Assembly (NCBI GenBank): GCA_036930585.1
Contig: GCA_036930585.1_3066.1
Length of the DNA: 64,000 nucleotides
Reading direction: 5' to 3' (one strand)
Source: a phage
Part shown: positions 345 through 40,560 of the stretch, piece after piece
Layout: each line of letters starts with the position of its first letter
Numbering within the stretch: the first letter of the stretch is position 1
Position numbers and translations under genes: made by a program
Notes under the pieces: model-generated
What the model was told of the DNA's origin: nothing
The model's database searches: none
What the model saw: the letters and a program-made list of their open reading frames with translations, nothing else

Positions 345-950
345 TTACTTGGAAGGTATAGTGATGGCTTTGACATATTCTCTACATTCCTTAACAAATT
401 TTTCTAATAATAAATCGCTTTCAAAATTAGGATTTTCCACGAATTTATCAAAAAGATCATCAACAATAGTTAAGATATTCTTTTTGCTAAGAATACGTTT
501 ATTTTCATATTTTGTTTCAGAGTCAACTATAAGAGTAAAGAAATATTTCTTTCCCTGAAATTTTACCGTAGTATCAATATAAAATAAATTTGACTTTTGT
601 AAATTACGTTTAAACCATGCGTCACTTAAACTATAAACGCCAAGATAATCATAATCGTCATTTAAATAACAAACTGTCCATTCAGGAGAAATGAAATCAG
701 TAAATTCAACATCAAAATCACATGTCAATGAATGAATTGATTCAATACTTTTAATGAGTATTCCAGGACGTATTAAAGACTTTTTACCTTTATAAAATCC
801 AGAAAGACTTTCATCAGTTTCATATGAAGACCCCCAATAGTAATTACGTCCTTCTGCCATACGTTTAAGAGCATTTAGTAATTGATCTGGAACATCAACC
901 TGTCTTTGGAACTCTTCAAACATTGAATTGAAATCACTTTGCATTTTCAT
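345..950 (-). CDS. hypothetical protein (201 aa)
   Basis: ORF track; ATG start; co-oriented with neighbouring early genes; no motif recognised. Confidence 0.6.
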   Translation of the reverse strand: MKMQSDFNSMFEEFQRQVDVPDQLLNALKRMAEGRNYYWGSSYETDESLSGFYKGKKSLIRPGILIKSIESIHSLTCDFDVEFTDFISPEWTVCYLNDDYDYLGVYSLSDAWFKRNLQKSNLFYIDTTVKFQGKKYFFTLIVDSETKYENKRILSKKNILTIVDDLFDKFVENPNFESDLLLEKFVKECREYVKAITIPSK

Positions 951-991: not shown

Positions 992-1585
992 TTATTTCAG
1001 AGAATTAATATATTCCTGGACATCGGCAGAGGTAGTTTCAACCCCGGAAATATTACCATTAAAGGTTTCAACTCGGGCGAGAGTATCTTCAATATCAACT
1101 TTAGTTAGCGCTGCAATTTCAACTACATCATCAGCAGTACTAATTCCAAGGGCATTTGCTGCACGAGTTTCACGGATATATTCCAATTTAACTGCAAGTT
1201 CTTGGCGAGCATCATCCAATTCAACTACTTTCTTGGCGATTTCAATTCGCATTTCAGCATAACCATCAGCTTTAGTAGTCAACTGTTCAGCTGTTCGACG
1301 ATATAGCAAGCCGAGTTTAGCATGCATTGTTACATCTTGACCTTCAGAAAGAAGCTTGCGAATTTCACGCTCTTTTGATTCGGCCTGCTTATTCTTTTCG
1401 ACAATAAGTTCACGAATACGCTTTTCTTCATTAATAGATTTAACAGAAGCAGTTTTTAGATCTTTAATCTTATCAAGTAGTTTTGCTGCCGCAGCAGTAT
1501 ACTGTTCTTCAACAGATAGATTTTTAGCCATAGCAGAACCAAGTTTAGTGCGAATAAACTCAACAATTTTCTTCAGTGTGTTCAT
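992..1585 (-). CDS. hypothetical coiled-coil protein (197 aa), possibly PspA/IM30-like
   Basis: ORF track; heptad-rich, charged sequence ([34 protein letters not shown]); family assignment is speculative. Confidence 0.55.
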
Positions 1586-2516: not shown

Positions 2517-2542
2517 CAAAAAGCCCTATCATTTAGATAGGG
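2517..2542 (-). terminator. rho-independent terminator (hairpin CCCTATC/GATAGGG + T-run)
   Basis: 7-bp stem followed by CTTTTT on minus strand just downstream of IP-like gene 2551..3114; second hairpin AGGCC-CGGAAA-GGCCT at 2495-2510. Confidence 0.5.
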
Positions 2543-2550
2543 ATTTAAAA

Positions 2551-3114
2551 TTATTTACCTAGTTTACTTATTATAGCTTCTGCAGCAGCTTTTAGCTTAG
2601 ATGCAGTGTTAATACGATTTTTAATTTCAGTATACGCATCGCCAAGAACATCAAGGCTATCAGAATAAACACTTACACTATTGCGTTCGCTATTTGAAAT
2701 AGAACCTTTAGTTTTGCGGTCAAAATCGGTGTACACGTCTTGAAGATCGCGGGCTGCCTTCTTTGCATCATCCAATGCATCAAGAGCTTTATTCAAAGCA
2801 TTAACGTATTTTTTAGTGTCGAACATATTCTTAGAAATTTTAACAGGTGCGCGTTCAGGAGTAGCTAACACAGATTTAGGAACCTGAGCGCCAGATGCCA
2901 ATTTCTTAGAAATTTTGAAAAATGCTTTATTGAATTTATTTTCTTGACTCATTGTAAAAGAACTATTATCGATGTTGTACATTTCAATAGCTTTAGCTTT
3001 CCACTTAAGAAAATCGCCGCGGTCTTTTGGGTCCAATTGGAAGAATACTTTAGTAAGATCTGCTTCAGATGGTAATTTTGCTGCTTCGGTTAAAAATTCG
3101 GCATAGGTTTTCAT
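2551..3114 (-). CDS. internal-protein-like head protein with N-terminal capsid targeting sequence (187 aa)
   Basis: N-terminus MKTYAEFLTEA resembles the T4 IP capsid-targeting sequence MKTYQEFIAE with a gp21-type (L/I)xE cleavage site. Confidence 0.6.
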   Translation of the reverse strand: MKTYAEFLTEAAKLPSEADLTKVFFQLDPKDRGDFLKWKAKAIEMYNIDNSSFTMSQENKFNKAFFKISKKLASGAQVPKSVLATPERAPVKISKNMFDTKKYVNALNKALDALDDAKKAARDLQDVYTDFDRKTKGSISNSERNSVSVYSDSLDVLGDAYTEIKNRINTASKLKAAAEAIISKLGK

Positions 3115-3203
3115 TTAAAATCCTTGAAATAATTTATCGGTTGGTTATTAATTATTTATTACTTTGTTACTATCCGTAACAGCGTTATCCGAGTGATTCA
3201 AAC

Positions 3204-3231
3204 TAAAAAGCCCCAACCTTTCGGTCGGGGC
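3204..3231 (-). terminator. rho-independent terminator (GCCCCGACC-GAAA-GGTTGGGGC + T5)
   Basis: Minus-strand hairpin followed by TTTTT; 31-bp sequence identical to copy at 3759-3786. Confidence 0.6.
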
Positions 3232-3239
3232 TAAGAATG

Positions 3240-3713
3240 TCATTTGATTTGTTTAGCAGACCAAATGCGGTCTTTAATAATTTTTTGGATGTCTTCAACA
3301 TACTCAAGAGAGTGAACATGTGGATTATCTTTGAAACTATAAGCACGGGCTAACTTTTGGCCTTCGGTTTTGATTACTAAAAGCTCTTTAAGGATAGCTT
3401 CATATTTGGAGATAATTCCTTTAACAATATTTTTCTCTTGTGTGACTTTAGGATCTTCTTTAGGAGCAGGTTTACCTGAAGCCTTTGCAAAAGCAGCGCC
3501 AGTAGCAACTAAACTTTTCCAGGCCATACTAACTGCATTCCCTGTAAATCCTTCGGCTTTCATATCACGAGCAAATTGGAATCGTGATTCATCGGAAGCA
3601 TCTTTATAGGAATATTTACCCGCGGCAATGGCTGCTTTTGCGACAGCTTGAATTTCGGTGCTAGATGCTTCATTTAACACCGCTTCATTTAAAAATTGAG
3701 CATATGATTTCAT
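3240..3713 (-). CDS. internal-protein-like head protein with N-terminal capsid targeting sequence (157 aa)
   Basis: N-terminus MKSYAQFLNEA (CTS-like, LNE-A cleavage motif); Ala/Lys-rich; minus-strand TATAAATA upstream. Confidence 0.6.
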   Translation of the reverse strand: MKSYAQFLNEAVLNEASSTEIQAVAKAAIAAGKYSYKDASDESRFQFARDMKAEGFTGNAVSMAWKSLVATGAAFAKASGKPAPKEDPKVTQEKNIVKGIISKYEAILKELLVIKTEGQKLARAYSFKDNPHVHSLEYVEDIQKIIKDRIWSAKQIK

Positions 3714-3749: not shown

Positions 3750-3757
3750 TATTTATA
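3750..3757 (-). promoter_or_regulatory. late promoter TATAAATA
   Basis: Exact TATAAATA on minus strand about 37 nt upstream of ATG at 3713. Confidence 0.5.
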
Positions 3758-3758
3758 C

Positions 3759-3786
3759 TAAAAAGCCCCAACCTTTCGGTCGGGGC
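3759..3786 (-). terminator. rho-independent terminator (identical copy of 3204-3231)
   Basis: Same hairpin + T-run; ends the transcript coming from the tRNA / stable-RNA region. Confidence 0.6.
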
Positions 3787-3792
3787 TAAGCC

Positions 3793-4098: not shown

Positions 4099-4449
4099 TT
4101 AATATTCTTTTAAAGCATCAATCTGTTCACGGCGTTTACGCCATAAATTAATTACTTCATAAGCGGATTCAGCATTTCGAATTGGTCGGCATTTATATAA
4201 AGACTTGCGATTTTGATATTGTGTAGATAACGGAATTTTATCTAAAAGGTCTTTACGTTCAAAGTATTCGTAACCATCTAAGCCAAATGAACGATTTTTG
4301 AGAAATTGCCAATGACCAAATTCGTTTTGAATATAAATATAATCCGCGTGTTGATAAAGTAAATTAATTTCACGAAATGAGATATGTTTTTCATATTCAT
4401 TGAAGTAAAATGTTAAATCATGAACTACTAAATAAACATTACCTTTCAT
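4099..4449 (-). CDS. hypothetical protein (116 aa)
   Basis: ORF track; ATG with GAGGA SD; lies between tRNA-Arg and the candidate stable-RNA region. Confidence 0.55.
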   Translation of the reverse strand: MKGNVYLVVHDLTFYFNEYEKHISFREINLLYQHADYIYIQNEFGHWQFLKNRSFGLDGYEYFERKDLLDKIPLSTQYQNRKSLYKCRPIRNAESAYEVINLWRKRREQIDALKEY

Positions 4450-5421: not shown

Positions 5422-6030
5422 TTATTTATTACGTGAAAAAGACTGTTCTATCAATTCTGGACACTTTCGTTCTATCCATTTTCTAGCTTTTTGTGGGCTT
5501 ATACCTATTATTTTAGCAGCTTTACTAACCCATCCAAATTTAGAATAATCGATTTTAACTAATTCTTCGTAAATTTCATCAGTTAAAATCTTTTCATTAA
5601 TATTTACCAGTAAATGATATAATTTGTTATCATTAGCAATTTTAATGAATCTTTTATAGTTTCCGCCTTTACTTAAACCTAATGAAGTAATTGCAGATGA
5701 TATAGTAGCCGAATTTAATAATGCGTTTAAAATTTCTTCATCACTAACATTATAACGCTTTTTATTATTTTTAATATTTTTACCAGCAAAAGTATCAGTT
5801 TGCGAATGACAGTTTGGACATAATAATCTTAAATTTGATTTAAGATGATTTTTGTTATTTCCATCAATATGGTCTAATTGCAGAACAATATGCTTATTTT
5901 GCCATTTTGAAATTTTACAAATTGCACACTCATATGGAAAAATATTTTCTTTTATTATTTTGTCTTTCAGCTTTCCTGTACTAAAATTTGGATGTTTTCC
6001 TTCAAAAATTTCAGCTAATTTAGTATCCAT
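5422..6030 (-). CDS. free-standing HNH homing endonuclease (about 202 aa)
   Basis: HNH motif CAICK...LQLDHIDGNNKNHLKSNLRLLCPNCH; basic C-terminal DNA-binding region; track start 6054 appears non-ATG, first ATG at 6030 (MDTKLAEI); abuts the tRNA cluster. Confidence 0.75.
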   Translation of the reverse strand: MDTKLAEIFEGKHPNFSTGKLKDKIIKENIFPYECAICKISKWQNKHIVLQLDHIDGNNKNHLKSNLRLLCPNCHSQTDTFAGKNIKNNKKRYNVSDEEILNALLNSATISSAITSLGLSKGGNYKRFIKIANDNKLYHLLVNINEKILTDEIYEELVKIDYSKFGWVSKAAKIIGISPQKARKWIERKCPELIEQSFSRNK

Positions 6031-6104
6031 AATATGATTCCCAATTATTAACAAAGGCTCTCAAATAAGAACCCTTGATGATAGAGGGTATTAATCAGTG
6101 CGAT

Positions 6105-6832: not shown

Positions 6833-7017
6833 TATTCACCTTTAGAAATTTTATCCATAACAATAGCAATTAAACCAATTAAAAATGCTACTACAAGTGA
6901 AAACACATTTTCTGCTGTAGTCAATAATCCACATATAAATCCAACAAACATTGAAAAACTAAAAGCGGAAGCAGAAATTGCAATAGCAACATTTCGAATT
7001 AATTCACAACGTTTCAT
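6832..7017 (-). CDS. hypothetical small membrane protein (61 aa)
   Basis: ORF track; hydrophobic core FSFSMFVGFICGLLT...LVVAFLIGLIAIVM; promoter cassette upstream. Confidence 0.45.
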   Translation of the reverse strand: MKRCELIRNVAIAISASAFSFSMFVGFICGLLTTAENVFSLVVAFLIGLIAIVMDKISKGE

Positions 7018-7036
7018 TTTATTCTCCTCAGTAGTA

Positions 7037-7075
7037 GATAGGGTAATAGTATCACTACCCTATCTAAAAGTAAAC
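7037..7075 (-). promoter_or_regulatory. early promoter + hairpin cassette, copy A
   Basis: Minus strand GTTTAC-N18-TGaTACTAT; -10 sits in the loop of palindrome GATAGGG...CCCTATC; upstream of orf 6832..7017. Confidence 0.5.
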
Positions 7076-7309
7076 TTATTTTTTACGAAAAATTGATTTA
7101 TTTTCTGCTGCCCATTTTTCAATAACTGCAGCAGGACCAGTAACAACAATTTTATCACCGTAATCTTCTGCGGCGAGTTGACCGAAATTATCTAATGCAT
7201 CACGAAGAACTCCATGAGGCATTTCACCCATTTTATCTTTCTTGCCAGTGTAAATAAACTCAACTTTTACATCAGCAGTTTCAGCAATAAATTCTTGGTA
7301 AGTTTTCAT
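7076..7309 (-). CDS. ipI: internal protein I-like head protein with capsid targeting sequence (77 aa from MKTYQEFIAE)
   Basis: N-terminus MKTYQEFIAE matches the recalled T4 IP CTS exactly; lies just downstream of 57B as ipI does in T4; track ORF begins 4 codons earlier (MEIK). Confidence 0.65.
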   Translation of the reverse strand: MKTYQEFIAETADVKVEFIYTGKKDKMGEMPHGVLRDALDNFGQLAAEDYGDKIVVTGPAAVIEKWAAENKSIFRKK

Positions 7310-7334
7310 TTTGATTTCCATTTGGTTTTGTTTT

Positions 7335-7385: not shown

Positions 7386-7643
7386 TTATTTTAAATCTTC
7401 TAATCGTTTCTTCATCTTAGAACCATTTTTAGCAATTTCTCCTGCATCGGAGCATAATGCTAAAAGTGCTTTAACTTTAGTTTGGTCTCCTTTAAAAGAT
7501 GAAGGATCGACCGCAGCAGCAAGTTCTTTAATACGAGAGAAAAGACGCTCAGCTTCAGCTAAAGCCATTCCAAGCTTTACTTCCATACCGTGGGAAGATT
7601 CAGTGATAGTAGTTTTTGTAGCAAACTCTTTGAAAGTTTTCAT
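7386..7643 (-). CDS. internal-protein-like small protein with CTS-like N-terminus (85 aa)
   Basis: N-terminus MKTFKEFATK...ITE (CTS-like); C-terminal codons EDLK-stop and downstream 35 bp identical to the 3' end of 57B. Confidence 0.55.
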   Translation of the reverse strand: MKTFKEFATKTTITESSHGMEVKLGMALAEAERLFSRIKELAAAVDPSSFKGDQTKVKALLALCSDAGEIAKNGSKMKKRLEDLK

Positions 7644-35208: not shown

Positions 35209-36833
<1,625 letters not shown>

Positions 36834-36834
<1 letters not shown>

Positions 36835-37073
36835 TGGAAGGTTTAATTGAAGCTATTAAATCAAACGACCTCGTAGCCGCTCGTAAATTATTTGCTGAAG
36901 CCATGGCTGCAAGAACGACTGATTTAATTAAAGAAGAAAAAATCGCTATCGCTCGTAATTTCTTAATCGAAGGTGAAGAACCTGATGACGAGGATGATGA
37001 CGAAGACGAAGATAGTGATGATAAAGACGACAAAAAAGACAAGGACTCTGACGAAGACGAGGATGATGAATAA
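36834..37073 (+). CDS. 67: prohead core protein gp67
   Basis: 79 aa with extremely acidic Asp/Glu C-terminal tail. Confidence 0.85.
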
Positions 37074-37498
37074 TGCTTCTGATCCCTGAAACTCATGAAT
37101 TAGTTCTCGAGAATGTCGAAGCACTTATTCCTGAAGCACAGGGTCGCTTTGACGAATTGTCTTCTGCTTTAAATAAAGACGATATAAATACAATTGTCGA
37201 GAATATGCTTGATGATGAAACTGATTTAGCGGTTGCATTAGCTTCTATTAATGAAAATATGCCGTTAAATGAATTTATCGTTAAACATGTTTCTGCCCGT
37301 GGTGAAATTACTCGCACTAAAGATCGCAAAACCCGCGAACGTAATGCATTTCAAACTACCGGGTTGTCTAAAGCAAAACGTAGACAAATTGCTCGTAAAG
37401 CTACCAAAACGAAGATTGCCAATCCAGCAGGTCAATCTCGTGCTCAGCGTAAGCGTAAAAAAGCTCTTAAACGCCGTAAAGCATTAGGATTAAGCTAA
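37073..37498 (+). CDS. 68: prohead core protein gp68
   Basis: 141 aa, basic C-terminus; synteny 67-68-21. Confidence 0.85.
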
Positions 37499-38136
37499 TG
37501 AATGAACCCCAATTACTAATTGAAACTTGGGGTCAACCTGGCGAAATTATTGATGGCGTACCAATGCTTGAATCTCATGATGGAAAAGACTTAGGTTTAA
37601 AACCTGGTTTATACATCGAAGGAATATTCATGCAAGCGGAAGTCGTCAATAGAAATAAACGTCTTTATCCAAAACGTATATTAGAAAAAGCGGTAAAAGA
37701 CTATATTAATGAGCAAGTTTTAACTAAACAAGCTCTCGGAGAATTAAATCATCCTCCACGCGCTAATGTTGACCCGATGCAAGCCGCTATCATTATAGAA
37801 GATATGTGGTGGAAAGGAAATGACGTATACGGACGAGCTCGTGTTATTGAAGGTGACCATGGTCCTGGAGATAAATTAGCAGCTAATATTCGTGCCGGAT
37901 GGATTCCAGGAGTTTCTTCTCGTGGATTAGGTTCATTGACTGACACAAATAAAGGTTATCGTATCGTAAACGAAGGATTCAAATTAACTGTAGGTGTTGA
38001 TGCAGTATGGGGTCCAAGTGCTCCAGATGCATGGGTAACTCCTAAGGAAATTACCGAATCACAGACGGCGGAAGCCGATACAAGTGCCGATGACGCCTAT
38101 ATGGCTCTCGCAGAGGCCATGAAAAAAGCGTTATAA
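37498..38136 (+). CDS. 21: prohead core protease gp21
   Basis: 212 aa; synteny. Confidence 0.9.
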   Translation: MNEPQLLIETWGQPGEIIDGVPMLESHDGKDLGLKPGLYIEGIFMQAEVVNRNKRLYPKRILEKAVKDYINEQVLTKQALGELNHPPRANVDPMQAAIIIEDMWWKGNDVYGRARVIEGDHGPGDKLAANIRAGWIPGVSSRGLGSLTDTNKGYRIVNEGFKLTVGVDAVWGPSAPDAWVTPKEITESQTAEADTSADDAYMALAEAMKKAL

Positions 38137-38139
38137 ATA
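38132..38139 (+). promoter_or_regulatory. late promoter TATAAATA (gene 22)
   Basis: Exact TATAAATA overlapping gene 21 stop, 28 nt upstream of ATG 38167. Confidence 0.6.
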
Positions 38140-38166
38140 TTATTATCTAAACAACAGGACTACAAA

Positions 38167-38976
38167 ATGCTTAAAGAACAACTGATTGCTGAAGCGCAGA
38201 AAATTGATGCTTCCGTTGCTCTTGATAGTATTTTCGAATCAGTTAATATTTCTCCGGAAGCAAAAGAAACTTTCGGCACTGTATTCGAAGCTACCGTCAA
38301 GCAGCACGCCGTTAAATTAGCTGAATCTCATATCGCTAAAATTGCTGAAAAAGCAGAAGAAGAAGTAGAAAAAAATAAAGAAGAAGCAGAAGAAAAAGCT
38401 GAGAAGAAAATCGCTGAGCAAGCTTCTAAATTCCTTGACCATCTTGCAAAAGAATGGCTCACTGAAAATAAATTAGCAGTAGATAAAGGTATCAAAGCCG
38501 AACTGTTTGAATCCATGCTTGGTGGATTGAAAGAGCTCTTCGTTGAACACAACGTTGTTGTTCCAGAAGAATCAGTTGATGTTGTAGCTGAAATGGAAGA
38601 AGAACTGCAAGAACATAAAAAAGAATCAGCTCGTCTGTTCGAAGAACTCAATAAGCGTGACGCATATATCAATTATGTGCAGCGTGAAGTGGCATTGAGC
38701 GAAAGTACTAAAGATCTGACTGAGTCTCAAAAAGAAAAAGTCTCTGCTCTGGTCGAAGGTATGGATTATTCAGATGCATTCTCAAGTAAATTGAGTGCAA
38801 TCGTAGAAATGGTGAAGAAATCTAATAAAGATGAAAGCACTATTACTGAGAGTATAAATACTCCTGATACTGAAGCAGCCGGACTGAATTTCGTCACTGA
38901 AGCTGTAGAAGATAAATCTGCACAAGGTGCAGAAGATATTGTAAGTGTATATGCGAAAGTCGCATCTCGTTTCTAA
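38167..38976 (+). CDS. 22: prohead core scaffold protein gp22
   Basis: 269 aa, Glu/Lys-rich helical protein. Confidence 0.9.
   Translation: MLKEQLIAEAQKIDASVALDSIFESVNISPEAKETFGTVFEATVKQHAVKLAESHIAKIAEKAEEEVEKNKEEAEEKAEKKIAEQASKFLDHLAKEWLTENKLAVDKGIKAELFESMLGGLKELFVEHNVVVPEESVDVVAEMEEELQEHKKESARLFEELNKRDAYINYVQREVALSESTKDLTESQKEKVSALVEGMDYSDAFSSKLSAIVEMVKKSNKDESTITESINTPDTEAAGLNFVTEAVEDKSAQGAEDIVSVYAKVASRF
38853..38860 (+). promoter_or_regulatory. late promoter TATAAATA inside 3' end of gene 22 (gene 23)
   Basis: Exact TATAAATA about 135 nt upstream of gene 23 ATG. Confidence 0.5.
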
Positions 38977-38994
38977 TTTTAAAGGTTAACACAA

Positions 38995-40560
38995 ATGACT
39001 ATCAAAACTAAAGCTGAACTTTTGAACAAATGGAAGCCATTACTGGAAGGTGAAGGTTTACCGGAAATTGCTAATAGCAAACAAGCGATTATCGCTAAAA
39101 TCTTTGAAAACCAGGAAAAAGATTTCCAGACAGCTCCAGAGTACAAAGACGAAAAAATCGCCCAGGCATTTGGTTCTTTCTTAACAGAAGCTGAAATCGG
39201 TGGTGACCACGGTTACAATGCTACCAACATCGCTGCAGGTCAGACTTCTGGAGCAGTAACTCAGATTGGCCCAGCTGTTATGGGTATGGTACGTCGTGCT
39301 ATTCCTAACCTGATTGCTTTCGATATTTGTGGTGTTCAGCCAATGAACAGCCCGACTGGCCAGGTATTCGCACTGCGCGCAGTATATGGTAAAGACCCAA
39401 TCGCTTCCGGTGCTAAAGAAGCATTCCACCCAATGTATGGTCCAGATGCAATGTTCTCTGGTCAGGGTGCTGCTAAGAAATTCGCTGCTTTGAAAGCAAG
39501 TGATACTCTTGAAGTCGGAACTATTTACACTCACTTCTTCCAGGAAACTGGTACAGTATATCTGCAAGCTACAGCAGCTAAACAAATTGATTCAGGCGCA
39601 TCTGACGCAGACAAATTAGATGCTGAAATTAAGAAACAAATGGAAGCTGGTGTACTGGTAGAAATCGCTGAAGGTATGGCTACTTCTATCGCTGAACTTC
39701 AAGAAGGTTTTAACGGTTCTACCGATAACCCATGGAATGAAATGGGCTTCCGTATCGATAAACAAGTTATCGAAGCTAAATCTCGTCAGCTGAAAGCTGC
39801 TTACTCTATTGAATTAGCACAAGACCTCCGCGCTGTTCACGGTATGGATGCTGATGCTGAACTGTCTGGTATTCTGGCTACAGAAATTATGCTGGAAATC
39901 AACCGTGAAGTTGTTGATTGGATTAACTACTCCGCTCAGGTTGGTAAATCTGGTATGACCCTGACTCCGGGTTCTAAAGCTGGTGTATTTGACTTCCAGG
40001 ACCCAATCGATATTCGTGGTGCTCGCTGGGCAGGTGAATCCTTTAAAGCTCTGTTGTTCCAGATTGACAAAGAAGCAGTTGAAATTGCTCGTCAGACTGG
40101 TCGCGGCGAAGGTAACTTCATTATCGCTTCCCGTAACGTAGTTAACGTTCTGGCTTCAGTTGATACCGGCATTTCTTATGCTGCACAAGGTCTGGCTACT
40201 GGCTTTAACACTGATACTACCAAGTCAGTATTTGCTGGTGTTCTGGGTGGTAAATACCGTGTATATATCGACCAGTATGCTAAACAGGATTATTTCACCG
40301 TAGGTTATAAAGGTCCGAACGAAATGGATGCTGGTATTTACTATGCTCCATATGTAGCTCTGACTCCGCTGCGTGGTTCTGATCCGAAGAACTTCCAACC
40401 GGTAATGGGATTCAAAACTCGTTACGGTATCGGTATCAACCCATTTGCAGAATCCGCTGCTCAGGCTCCGGCTTCTCGCATCCAGAGCGGTATGCCTTCT
40501 ATTCTGAATAGCCTTGGTAAAAACGCTTACTTTAGACGTGTATATGTTAAAGGTATCTAA
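38995..40560 (+). CDS. 23: major capsid protein gp23
   Basis: 521 aa; MTIKTKAELLNKWKPLLEGEGLPEIANSKQAIIAKIFENQEKDFQTAPEYKDEKIAQAFGSFLTEAEIGGDHGYNATNIAAGQ matches recalled T4 gp23. Confidence 0.97.
   Translation: MTIKTKAELLNKWKPLLEGEGLPEIANSKQAIIAKIFENQEKDFQTAPEYKDEKIAQAFGSFLTEAEIGGDHGYNATNIAAGQTSGAVTQIGPAVMGMVRRAIPNLIAFDICGVQPMNSPTGQVFALRAVYGKDPIASGAKEAFHPMYGPDAMFSGQGAAKKFAALKASDTLEVGTIYTHFFQETGTVYLQATAAKQIDSGASDADKLDAEIKKQMEAGVLVEIAEGMATSIAELQEGFNGSTDNPWNEMGFRIDKQVIEAKSRQLKAAYSIELAQDLRAVHGMDADAELSGILATEIMLEINREVVDWINYSAQVGKSGMTLTPGSKAGVFDFQDPIDIRGARWAGESFKALLFQIDKEAVEIARQTGRGEGNFIIASRNVVNVLASVDTGISYAAQGLATGFNTDTTKSVFAGVLGGKYRVYIDQYAKQDYFTVGYKGPNEMDAGIYYAPYVALTPLRGSDPKNFQPVMGFKTRYGIGINPFAESAAQAPASRIQSGMPSILNSLGKNAYFRRVYVKGI

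Follow-up and report, generated by a model that had tools for sequence, protein, structure and literature searches.

The 64,000-nucleotide phage sequence considered here (contig GCA_036930585.1_3066.1 of GenBank assembly GCA_036930585.1; its whole length is termed 'the window') comes from a Tequatrovirus, a T4-like phage, and has on its minus strand two adjacent open reading frames (ORFs) which are new, unannotated members of the T-even internal-protein class. They are not orthologs of IPII or IPIII and they occupy a third ip locus that is absent from T4. Their working names derive from the lengths of their products in amino acids: w187 (2551-3114(-), 187 residues) has the N-terminus MKTYAEFLTEA, and w157 (3240-3713(-), 157 residues; start MKSYAQFLNEAVLNEA) the N-terminus MKSYAQFLNEA, both being exactly where the original prediction had placed them. 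The reading we favour, with a probability of about 0.6, is that both are internal head proteins of the T-even class, w157 being an accessory inhibitor and w187 having a double role like that of IPIII. The unexpected part, in which the main and moderate interest of the locus lies, is an unremarked call of essentiality for w187.

Packaging by means of the N-terminal tag, with trimming by the prohead protease gp21, is likely and is the best supported step, the grounds for it being the motif, the head machinery, the promoter motifs, size and charge, conservation of the tag on diverged bodies, and detection of a w157 ortholog by mass spectrometry. Both proteins have Tyr4, Phe7, Leu8 and Glu10. In the tag of T4 IPIII residues 4 and 7 serve chiefly for capsid targeting and residues 8 and 10 for cleavage, and its first ten residues suffice to bring foreign proteins into the head (PMC9026906). 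In a six-frame translation of the window the motif M-x2-[YF]-x-[EQD]-F-[LI]-x-E has three matches, each of which is exactly the start of an ORF (w187, w157 and a 77-residue ORF at 7076-7309(-)), and 100 shuffles of the window yielded none. The capsid-targeting sequence of w187, codons 1-10 (3085-3114(-)), would be cleaved as MKTYAEFLTE/A, the slash marking the cut, and its residues 8-10 are the single [LIV]xE site of that protein. The putative propeptide of w157 extends over codons 1-15 (3669-3713(-)), with the tag followed by a second LNE/A motif, MKSYAQFLNE/AVLNE/A, giving sites at residues 8-10 and 13-15; one further weak and non-canonical site, LKE/L, is internal at residues 108-110. Removal of the targeting sequences would be expected of gp21 (Peptidase_S77), which is encoded at 37498-38136(+) amidst the genes for portal gp20, gp67, gp68, scaffold gp22 and capsid gp23 (35248-40560), with domain matches to Peptidase_S77, the T4_CASP scaffold, GP67 and Portal_T4, and so the phage has both the protease and the gp22/gp67/gp68 core that members of this class need.

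Processing would leave two small basic proteins. Computed values for mature w187 are 177 residues, 19.6 kDa and an isoelectric point (pI) of 9.5, and for mature w157 142-147 residues, about 16 kDa and a pI of 9.4-9.5, which resemble those of T4 IPIII* (20.4 kDa, pI 9.65). A scan for gp21 sites did not reveal in either protein the several internal sites that characterize components of the scaffold core: since the site at the N-terminus is the only one in w187, and w157 has no more than a single weak site inside, both should persist intact as internal proteins do. In the Yersinia phage fD1, the product of g140, which has no T4 counterpart, was particle-associated at full threshold when purified virions were subjected to liquid chromatography-tandem mass spectrometry (LC-MS/MS) (PMC8309999, Table S3). 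This protein has 157 residues and differs from w157 at about four of them (~97% identity). With the critical IPIII residues present, gp21 and the scaffold core encoded in the window, and a w157 ortholog in virions, the original capsid-targeting interpretation is well supported.

Judged by promoter motifs, both genes may be transcribed late. A perfect T4-type late promoter, TATAAATA (3750-3757(-)), is positioned 36 nucleotides upstream of the w157 ATG, as had been predicted, and additionally a 7/8 match, AATAAATA (3153-3160(-)), is positioned 38 nucleotides upstream of the w187 ATG. Its ATAAATA core is preserved in the six w187 leaders compared, despite differing flanking bases, and the w187-type homologs of JS98 and PG7 have a perfect TATAAATA immediately after a terminator. 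The claim that each gene has its own terminator also holds. Downstream of w157 there is a hairpin, AGCCCCGACCGAAAGGTTGGGGCT, with a T-run (3209-3232(-)), identical to the terminator-like hairpin upstream of w157 (3764-3787(-)) which ends an rnaC-like stable RNA, forms the left boundary of the w157 cassette and is present in one copy in T4. AGCCCCGACCGAAAGGTTGGGGCT occurs nowhere else in the window, and each occurrence is contained in one copy of a 40-nucleotide direct repeat; the copies, at 3196-3235 and 3751-3790, share 95% identity and stand on either side of the w157 cassette. The terminator following w187 has a different stem, CCCTATCTAAATGATAGGG, again with a T-run (2524-2542(-)), and homology to T4 resumes directly beyond it; the third terminator module (2509-2548), to which this stem belongs, has its flank as in T4. 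With a hairpin and T-run closing every unit the layout is terminator / late promoter-w157-terminator / leader-w187-terminator'.

Thus w157 and w187 are two independent gene-plus-terminator cassettes. RB14, Shfl2, CT01 and ESh27 have w187 without w157; AR1 and fD1 have w157 without w187; the phage of the window, Bas37 and HMD-9 have both. The pattern resembles the regulatory-cassette shuffling that PMC2839356 describes for T4-type phages, and the terminator-module repeats at the cassette boundaries could mediate gain or loss of cassettes by recombination.

The region is 97-99% identical to that of Shigella phage JK08, Yersinia phages PYps35T and fPS-65, and Escherichia phage KarlGJung (Bas37). 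Reading along the minus strand, 57B is followed by two small tagged genes, homologs of trna.4-trna.2, a homing endonuclease gene, ten tRNAs, rnaD-like and rnaC-like RNAs, w157 and w187, and then by e.8, e.7, e.6 and e.5. The two genes are thereby located between the rnaC-like RNA, on the side of the tRNA cluster, and e.8, at the rnaC terminator. T4 has neither of them, its corresponding interval consisting of the terminator only: in the alignment T4 homology extends through window position 2542, is interrupted, and is picked up again at 3755, and the lone rnaC terminator of T4 aligns with both edges of the two-gene segment. Neither gene is at the ipI locus or at the e-denV locus, so location gives no hint of orthology to IPI, IPII or IPIII.

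Nor does sequence. By BLASTP, similarity to T4 IPI, IPII and IPIII is confined to the tag, apart from a weak alignment of w187 with IPII (28% over 109 residues, pairwise E = 0.006), and comparison of w187 and w157 profiles with the three T4 proteins gave less than 1% probability each. The notion that w187 is a diverged IPII was rejected since the profile comparison for that pair gives 0.1% probability, and an outcome that would have refuted the original prediction, conserved orthologs of IPII or IPIII, is not what these BLASTP and profile comparisons found. It had also been claimed that the mature parts match nothing recognisable. This stands for Pfam, NCBIfam and PDB, sequence searches of which with either protein gave nothing above threshold. 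It does not stand for PHROG 2280, a family without assigned function which both proteins match (E = 1e-53 and 1e-60), nor in view of the hundreds of orthologs in phage genomes. Similarly, the bodies are divergent, as claimed, at the level of BLAST, and less so when profiles are used: with the tags trimmed, profile-profile comparison of w187 and w157 gave 55% probability with E = 1.2e-4 over 92 columns, and the predicted architecture is the same, so that they are probably distant paralogs, not unrelated proteins.

The shared plan of the models is a small N-terminal helical bundle, a disordered Pro/Lys-rich linker and a long conserved C-terminal helical hairpin. This predicted helical two-domain architecture matched no informative known fold: Foldseek against viral models retrieved orthologs only, and against PDB, for the w157 model only, generic helical noise. 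The AlphaFold models, the alignments for which are shallow, that for w187 included, have predicted local distance difference test (pLDDT) scores of 60 for w187, which is low confidence, and 73 for w157.

How old is this arrangement? By tblastn w187 is found in 165 phage records, in nearly all of them at least 95% identical. Exhaustive profile searching followed by an alignment-seeded search recovered relatives at 25-35% identity, and tblastn with one of these distant relatives added 190 more records, from Karamvirus, Dhakavirus and Mosigvirus and from Klebsiella, Serratia and Yersinia phages, bringing the type to about 355 phage records in total. The homologs in JS98 (orf135) and PG7 (gp146) are at the same site, between the tRNA cluster and e.8, and that position is constant in three Tevenvirinae genera, Tequatrovirus, Dhakavirus and Karamvirus. 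An initial view of w187 as an insertion specific to this phage lineage was reinterpreted on that account; with JS98 and PG7 having the type at the same site, it is more likely, judging from these comparisons, that T4 represents a lineage that lost it. What these relatives retain is an N-terminus resembling the tag, in many cases with another [LIV]xE/A site, together with a conserved domain in the N-terminal part, a linker rich in Pro, Ala and Lys whose length varies, and the C-terminal helices; in those at 25-35% identity the four critical tag residues are conserved while the bodies diverge.

Both w187 and w157 are real genes under purifying selection. For w187 the pairwise ratio of nonsynonymous to synonymous substitution rates (dN/dS) is 0.02-0.13, and across the seven sequences compared there is no variation in the C-terminal half. 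Its linker is expendable, to judge from Shigella phage CT01, where an in-frame deletion between short direct repeats has removed a 25-residue segment (the CT01 gene is at 1501-1989 of the extracted locus; the repeats flanking the linker are at 2828-2850 and 2903-2925 of the window). Shigella phage ESh27, a Mosigvirus and so of another genus, has a w187 copy that is 95.7% identical, and in RB69 the w187-type gene appears split into two ORFs, ORF148c/149c; these two cases suggest lateral exchange, and decay in some lineages.

The w157 family is present in 512 records. Its N-terminal domain extends to Klebsiella and Yersinia phages, where it is fused to different C-termini, pairwise dN/dS is 0.05-0.20, and truncated, apparently frameshifted versions of ~93-111 residues recur among relatives (fPS-65 g136c, SfPhi01 and others). 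The fPS-65 frameshift (gene at 6980-7318 of the extracted locus) is at a run of nine As; the window has five there (3425-3440, codons ~92-97) and an intact gene. This frameshift may reflect either true decay of the gene or an error in sequencing the homopolymer. All database copies examined of both types are annotated as hypothetical, the RB14 w187 gene having been named ncORF136c by its Karam-lab annotators, and in none of the records examined, RB14 included, is either labelled as an ip gene.

Phenotypic information comes from the phage Bas37. The product of bas37_0243 is 100% identical to w187, and in the HIDEN-SEQ transposon screen the gene was hit at one of its 48 TA sites and scored Essential (10.1101/2025.11.20.689424, Extended Data Table 7), a call on which the authors of that preprint do not comment. 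Its neighbour bas37_0244, the protein of which is 96.8% identical to w157, was hit at 29 of 34 TA sites and scored Non-essential (10.1101/2025.11.20.689424, Extended Data Table 7). Insertions are tolerated in all of bas37_0239-0242, 0244 and 0245, and T4 ipI, ipII and ipIII were scored non-essential in the same assay (10.1101/2025.11.20.689424). A polar effect is an unlikely source of the w187 phenotype given the tolerance of all the flanking genes, and that w157 is among them, in the same transcriptional context, argues against a polar or local artefact without being decisive. The w187 result may reflect a role in assembly or delivery, counter-defence against something in K-12, or an artefact of the screen. 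Both Bas37 and fPS-65 lack ipII and ipIII between denV and e.

The known tagged proteins provide a framework for interpretation. T4 IPIII, a late head-core protein, has like w187 and w157 a ten-residue tag ending in (L/I)xE/A, and mature w187 is close to it in size and charge (19.6 kDa and pI 9.5, against ~20 kDa and ~9.6). It both affects head assembly, which in ipIII mutants proceeds at about half the normal rate with polyheads being made (PMC9026906), and inhibits the GmrSD enzyme of ECOR17 (PMC12373910). In contrast to the similarity of the tags there is none detectable past them, the IPIII gene is between e and denV, and IPIII is dispensable in T4 whereas w187 was scored essential in Bas37. 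Shfl2, PhAPEC2 and EcNP1 have w187 and IPIII together, so that neither simply stands in for the other, and mutual exclusivity, which would have accounted for the essential score in Bas37, was rejected as a general rule, with G3F10, VIPECOOM03 and phiE142 also having both. A rule that one or other is needed is likewise broken by AR1, which has neither and has Ip4 instead. Ip4 is a tagged 157-residue protein with an unrelated body (MKTYQEFITE/AAINSQIIAE/S; 2656-3129 of the extracted AR1 locus), the gene for which stands downstream of e in place of those for IPII and IPIII; in the same region fD1 has a gene of the same size, g129 (2786-3259 of the extracted fD1 locus), listed as a virion head protein (PMC8309999).

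T4 Ip1, Ip2 and Ip3 inhibit GmrSD-type restriction enzymes, each of them a different one, and tests of Ip4-10 against further GmrSD enzymes brought no result (PMC12373910). The N-terminal sequences of w187 and w157 are absent from the supplementary files of the paper by Silas et al. in which ip4-10 were tested (PMC12373910). The principle of the same tag on unrelated bodies is shared with the type IV restriction inhibitors Ip1 and Ip2, with the polymorphic genes of the ipI locus and with Ip4 of RB32 and AR1, and the ip genes at the ipI locus are swapped as cassettes between related phages (Repoila et al. 1994, as cited in PMC12373910). Those genes differ in location, being found at the ipI or e-denV locus instead of in the interval from the tRNA cluster to e.8, and the proteins of the ipI locus are smaller (77-95 residues). 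One of the latter, Bas37_0260, inhibits McrBC (10.1101/2025.11.20.689424). Being tagged and from the same phage lineage it illustrates that new tagged proteins there can be restriction inhibitors; it differs from w187 and w157 in locus, size and sequence, and in being needed only when McrBC is present, while w187 insertions were missing even from a library made without McrBC. As proposed for w187 and w157, the scaffold-core proteins gp22, gp67 and gp68 of T4 become part of the prohead core, where gp21 cleaves them at (L/I)xE sites; head formation depends on them. They differ in that cleavage takes place at several internal sites and that for the most part they do not stay in the head (PMC9026906).

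We infer docking, cleavage, ejection and both functions along the following lines. Late in infection both proteins would be made and would dock by their first ten residues into the prohead scaffolding core, where gp21 would cut after Glu10 and in w157 probably after Glu15 also. The resulting basic helical proteins of ~19.6 and ~16 kDa would remain inside the DNA-filled head and, at the next infection, would exit together with the DNA. A function in the host, that is an injected anti-defence role, would be by analogy with Ip1-3 and Bas37_0260. For w157 it seems most likely, since all four characterized class members block nucleases aimed at modified DNA: w157 would be a dispensable accessory protein blocking a host nuclease of that kind, and being dispensable, often truncated and modular it fits such a role well. 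As a host-specific accessory factor w187 appears a poor fit, given its dN/dS of 0.02-0.13, its constant position across three genera and the essential score in Bas37 on laboratory E. coli. Belonging to an older family at a fixed position, it appears to be needed where, as in Bas37, a phage is without IPII and IPIII, and the preferred interpretation for it is an IPIII-like double role, whereby it would aid core assembly and, after ejection, act in the host.

Several considerations weigh against this. The fD1 proteome extends to 113 gene products, among which are non-structural proteins, rIIB for instance (PMC8309999), so its specificity is modest, and no virion proteomics covering w187 was found, the fPS-65 and UFV13 papers having no usable data. 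Pfam, NCBIfam, PDB and fold searches provide no link to a known inhibitor or DNA-binding protein, with the w187 model being of low confidence, and neither the CFT073 nor the CFE299 comparison reports an anti-defence phenotype for bas37_0244 (10.1101/2025.11.20.689424). T4 and AR1 lack w187, and AR1 also IPIII, which contradicts a general structural requirement, and the T4 triple ip mutant is viable (PMC9026906). Further, the screen calls T4 hoc, inh, wac, uvsW, segC and segE essential, though earlier work had them non-essential (10.1101/2025.11.20.689424), and accordingly the w187 call could be an artefact. Should the method be at fault, w187 would be an ordinary dispensable internal protein like Ip1-3, which we regard as rather doubtful. 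That hoc and inh are late and head-related genes lends the idea some weight, as do the reliance on gene-level counts, rather than site-level or pre-selection ones, and the lack of discussion of bas37_0243 in the preprint. Against it are the insertions accepted in all the neighbours on both sides, one of which, w157, shares the late-promoter and terminator context, and the correct scoring of T4 ipI, ipII and ipIII as non-essential. That the N-terminal similarity is a relic, with w187 and w157 being cytoplasmic late proteins that are not packaged, is very improbable: contaminants are indeed numerous in T4-like virion proteomes and none that covers w187 was found, but four critical residues are conserved across relatives with only 25-35% identity in the body, virions were found to contain the w157 ortholog at full threshold, and ten residues of T4 IPIII carry foreign proteins into the head by themselves.

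If the essential score is taken at face value, other constructions of it present themselves. Could w187 be chiefly a component for head assembly or DNA packing, with no part to play as an injected effector, so that its loss would block head formation? It could then be a core accessory that shapes or stabilizes the scaffolding core, or condense DNA by means of its basic linker. To be set in favour are that the score was obtained on a laboratory strain without any type IV restriction system, the strong purifying selection and invariant C-terminal half, the constant position in Tequatrovirus, Dhakavirus and Karamvirus, the long Pro/Ala/Lys-rich basic linkers of the homologs, and a size and pI like those of IPIII, which affects T4 head assembly. 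Nevertheless T4, AR1 and fD1 make normal heads without w187, in CT01 the whole linker is deleted in frame, and w187, lacking an internal cleavage site, would stay intact, unlike gp22, gp67 and gp68, which gp21 fragments; on balance a purely structural w187 seems unlikely. Less probable still is that w187 is a conventional injected counter-defence protein that seems essential only because K-12 has the system it targets. The same screen does score T4 dmd essential owing to RnlAB, and all four characterized tagged proteins are defence inhibitors. However, the host in which the library was made had none of McrA, McrBC, Mrr and EcoKI (as deduced from the full tolerance of bas37_0260 to insertions), T4 grows on K-12 without w187, and the very low dN/dS and absence of allelic diversity are not those of an arms-race gene. 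The double role for w187, which we prefer, has a bolder relative that can be entertained tentatively, at less than even odds: that the w187 type is an ancient Tevenvirinae internal head family, lost by T4, and truly indispensable in phages like Bas37. If so w187 would be the first essential capsid-targeted internal protein, and its vital role could be to help assemble the head core, to help deliver the DNA or to neutralize a core E. coli function.

Other features of the window are pertinent to its surroundings. Its ipI locus has two further tagged proteins: the 77-residue product of 7076-7309(-) (MKTYQEFIAE...) is 100% identical to Bas37_0260, the McrBC inhibitor, and the 85-residue product of 7386-7643(-) (MKTFKEF...ITE/S) is identical to bas37_0261, insertions in which are depleted in E. 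coli CFT073 (log2 fold change -2.09), a result that is undiscussed in the preprint (10.1101/2025.11.20.689424). On the other side, the e.6 homolog (992-1585(-)) is the 98.5% identical counterpart of bas37_0240, and the e.5 homolog (345-950(-)) is by gene order that of bas37_0239. According to the HIDEN-SEQ tables, both are strongly and conditionally depleted in CFT073 (log2 fold changes of -6.49 and -3.62, respectively), and for bas37_0240 the preprint lists a knockout strain without mentioning the gene in its text; the e.6 and e.5 homologs may be uncharacterized counter-defence genes. A 116-residue ORF between the rnaD-like RNA and tRNA-Arg (4099-4449(-)) has no T4 counterpart and is found also in Bas37 (bas37_0245), Shfl2, AR1 and fPS-65. 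A 210-residue ORF (5422-6054(-)) with HNH-like Cys/His motifs separates the tRNA cluster from the trna.2 homolog, and its Bas37 equivalent, bas37_0256, is annotated as a putative homing endonuclease; the T4 tRNA cluster holds a homing endonuclease of another family, the GIY-YIG enzyme SegB.

Proteins injected with phage DNA act ahead of any phage gene expression, and the four characterized T-even examples all disarm restriction enzymes that target modified DNA. To this class the locus adds two unannotated families, present together in several hundred genomes of therapeutic-type coliphages, and as T4 has neither, decades of T4 genetics never encountered them. If both are anti-restriction proteins, they would be candidates for pairing with the many GmrSD-type enzymes that lack a known inhibitor, with relevance to host-range prediction. 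If w187 is truly required, the long-held view of internal proteins as dispensable ‘passengers’ would need revision, and there would be a tractable route to the function of the abundant internal proteins inside the head.

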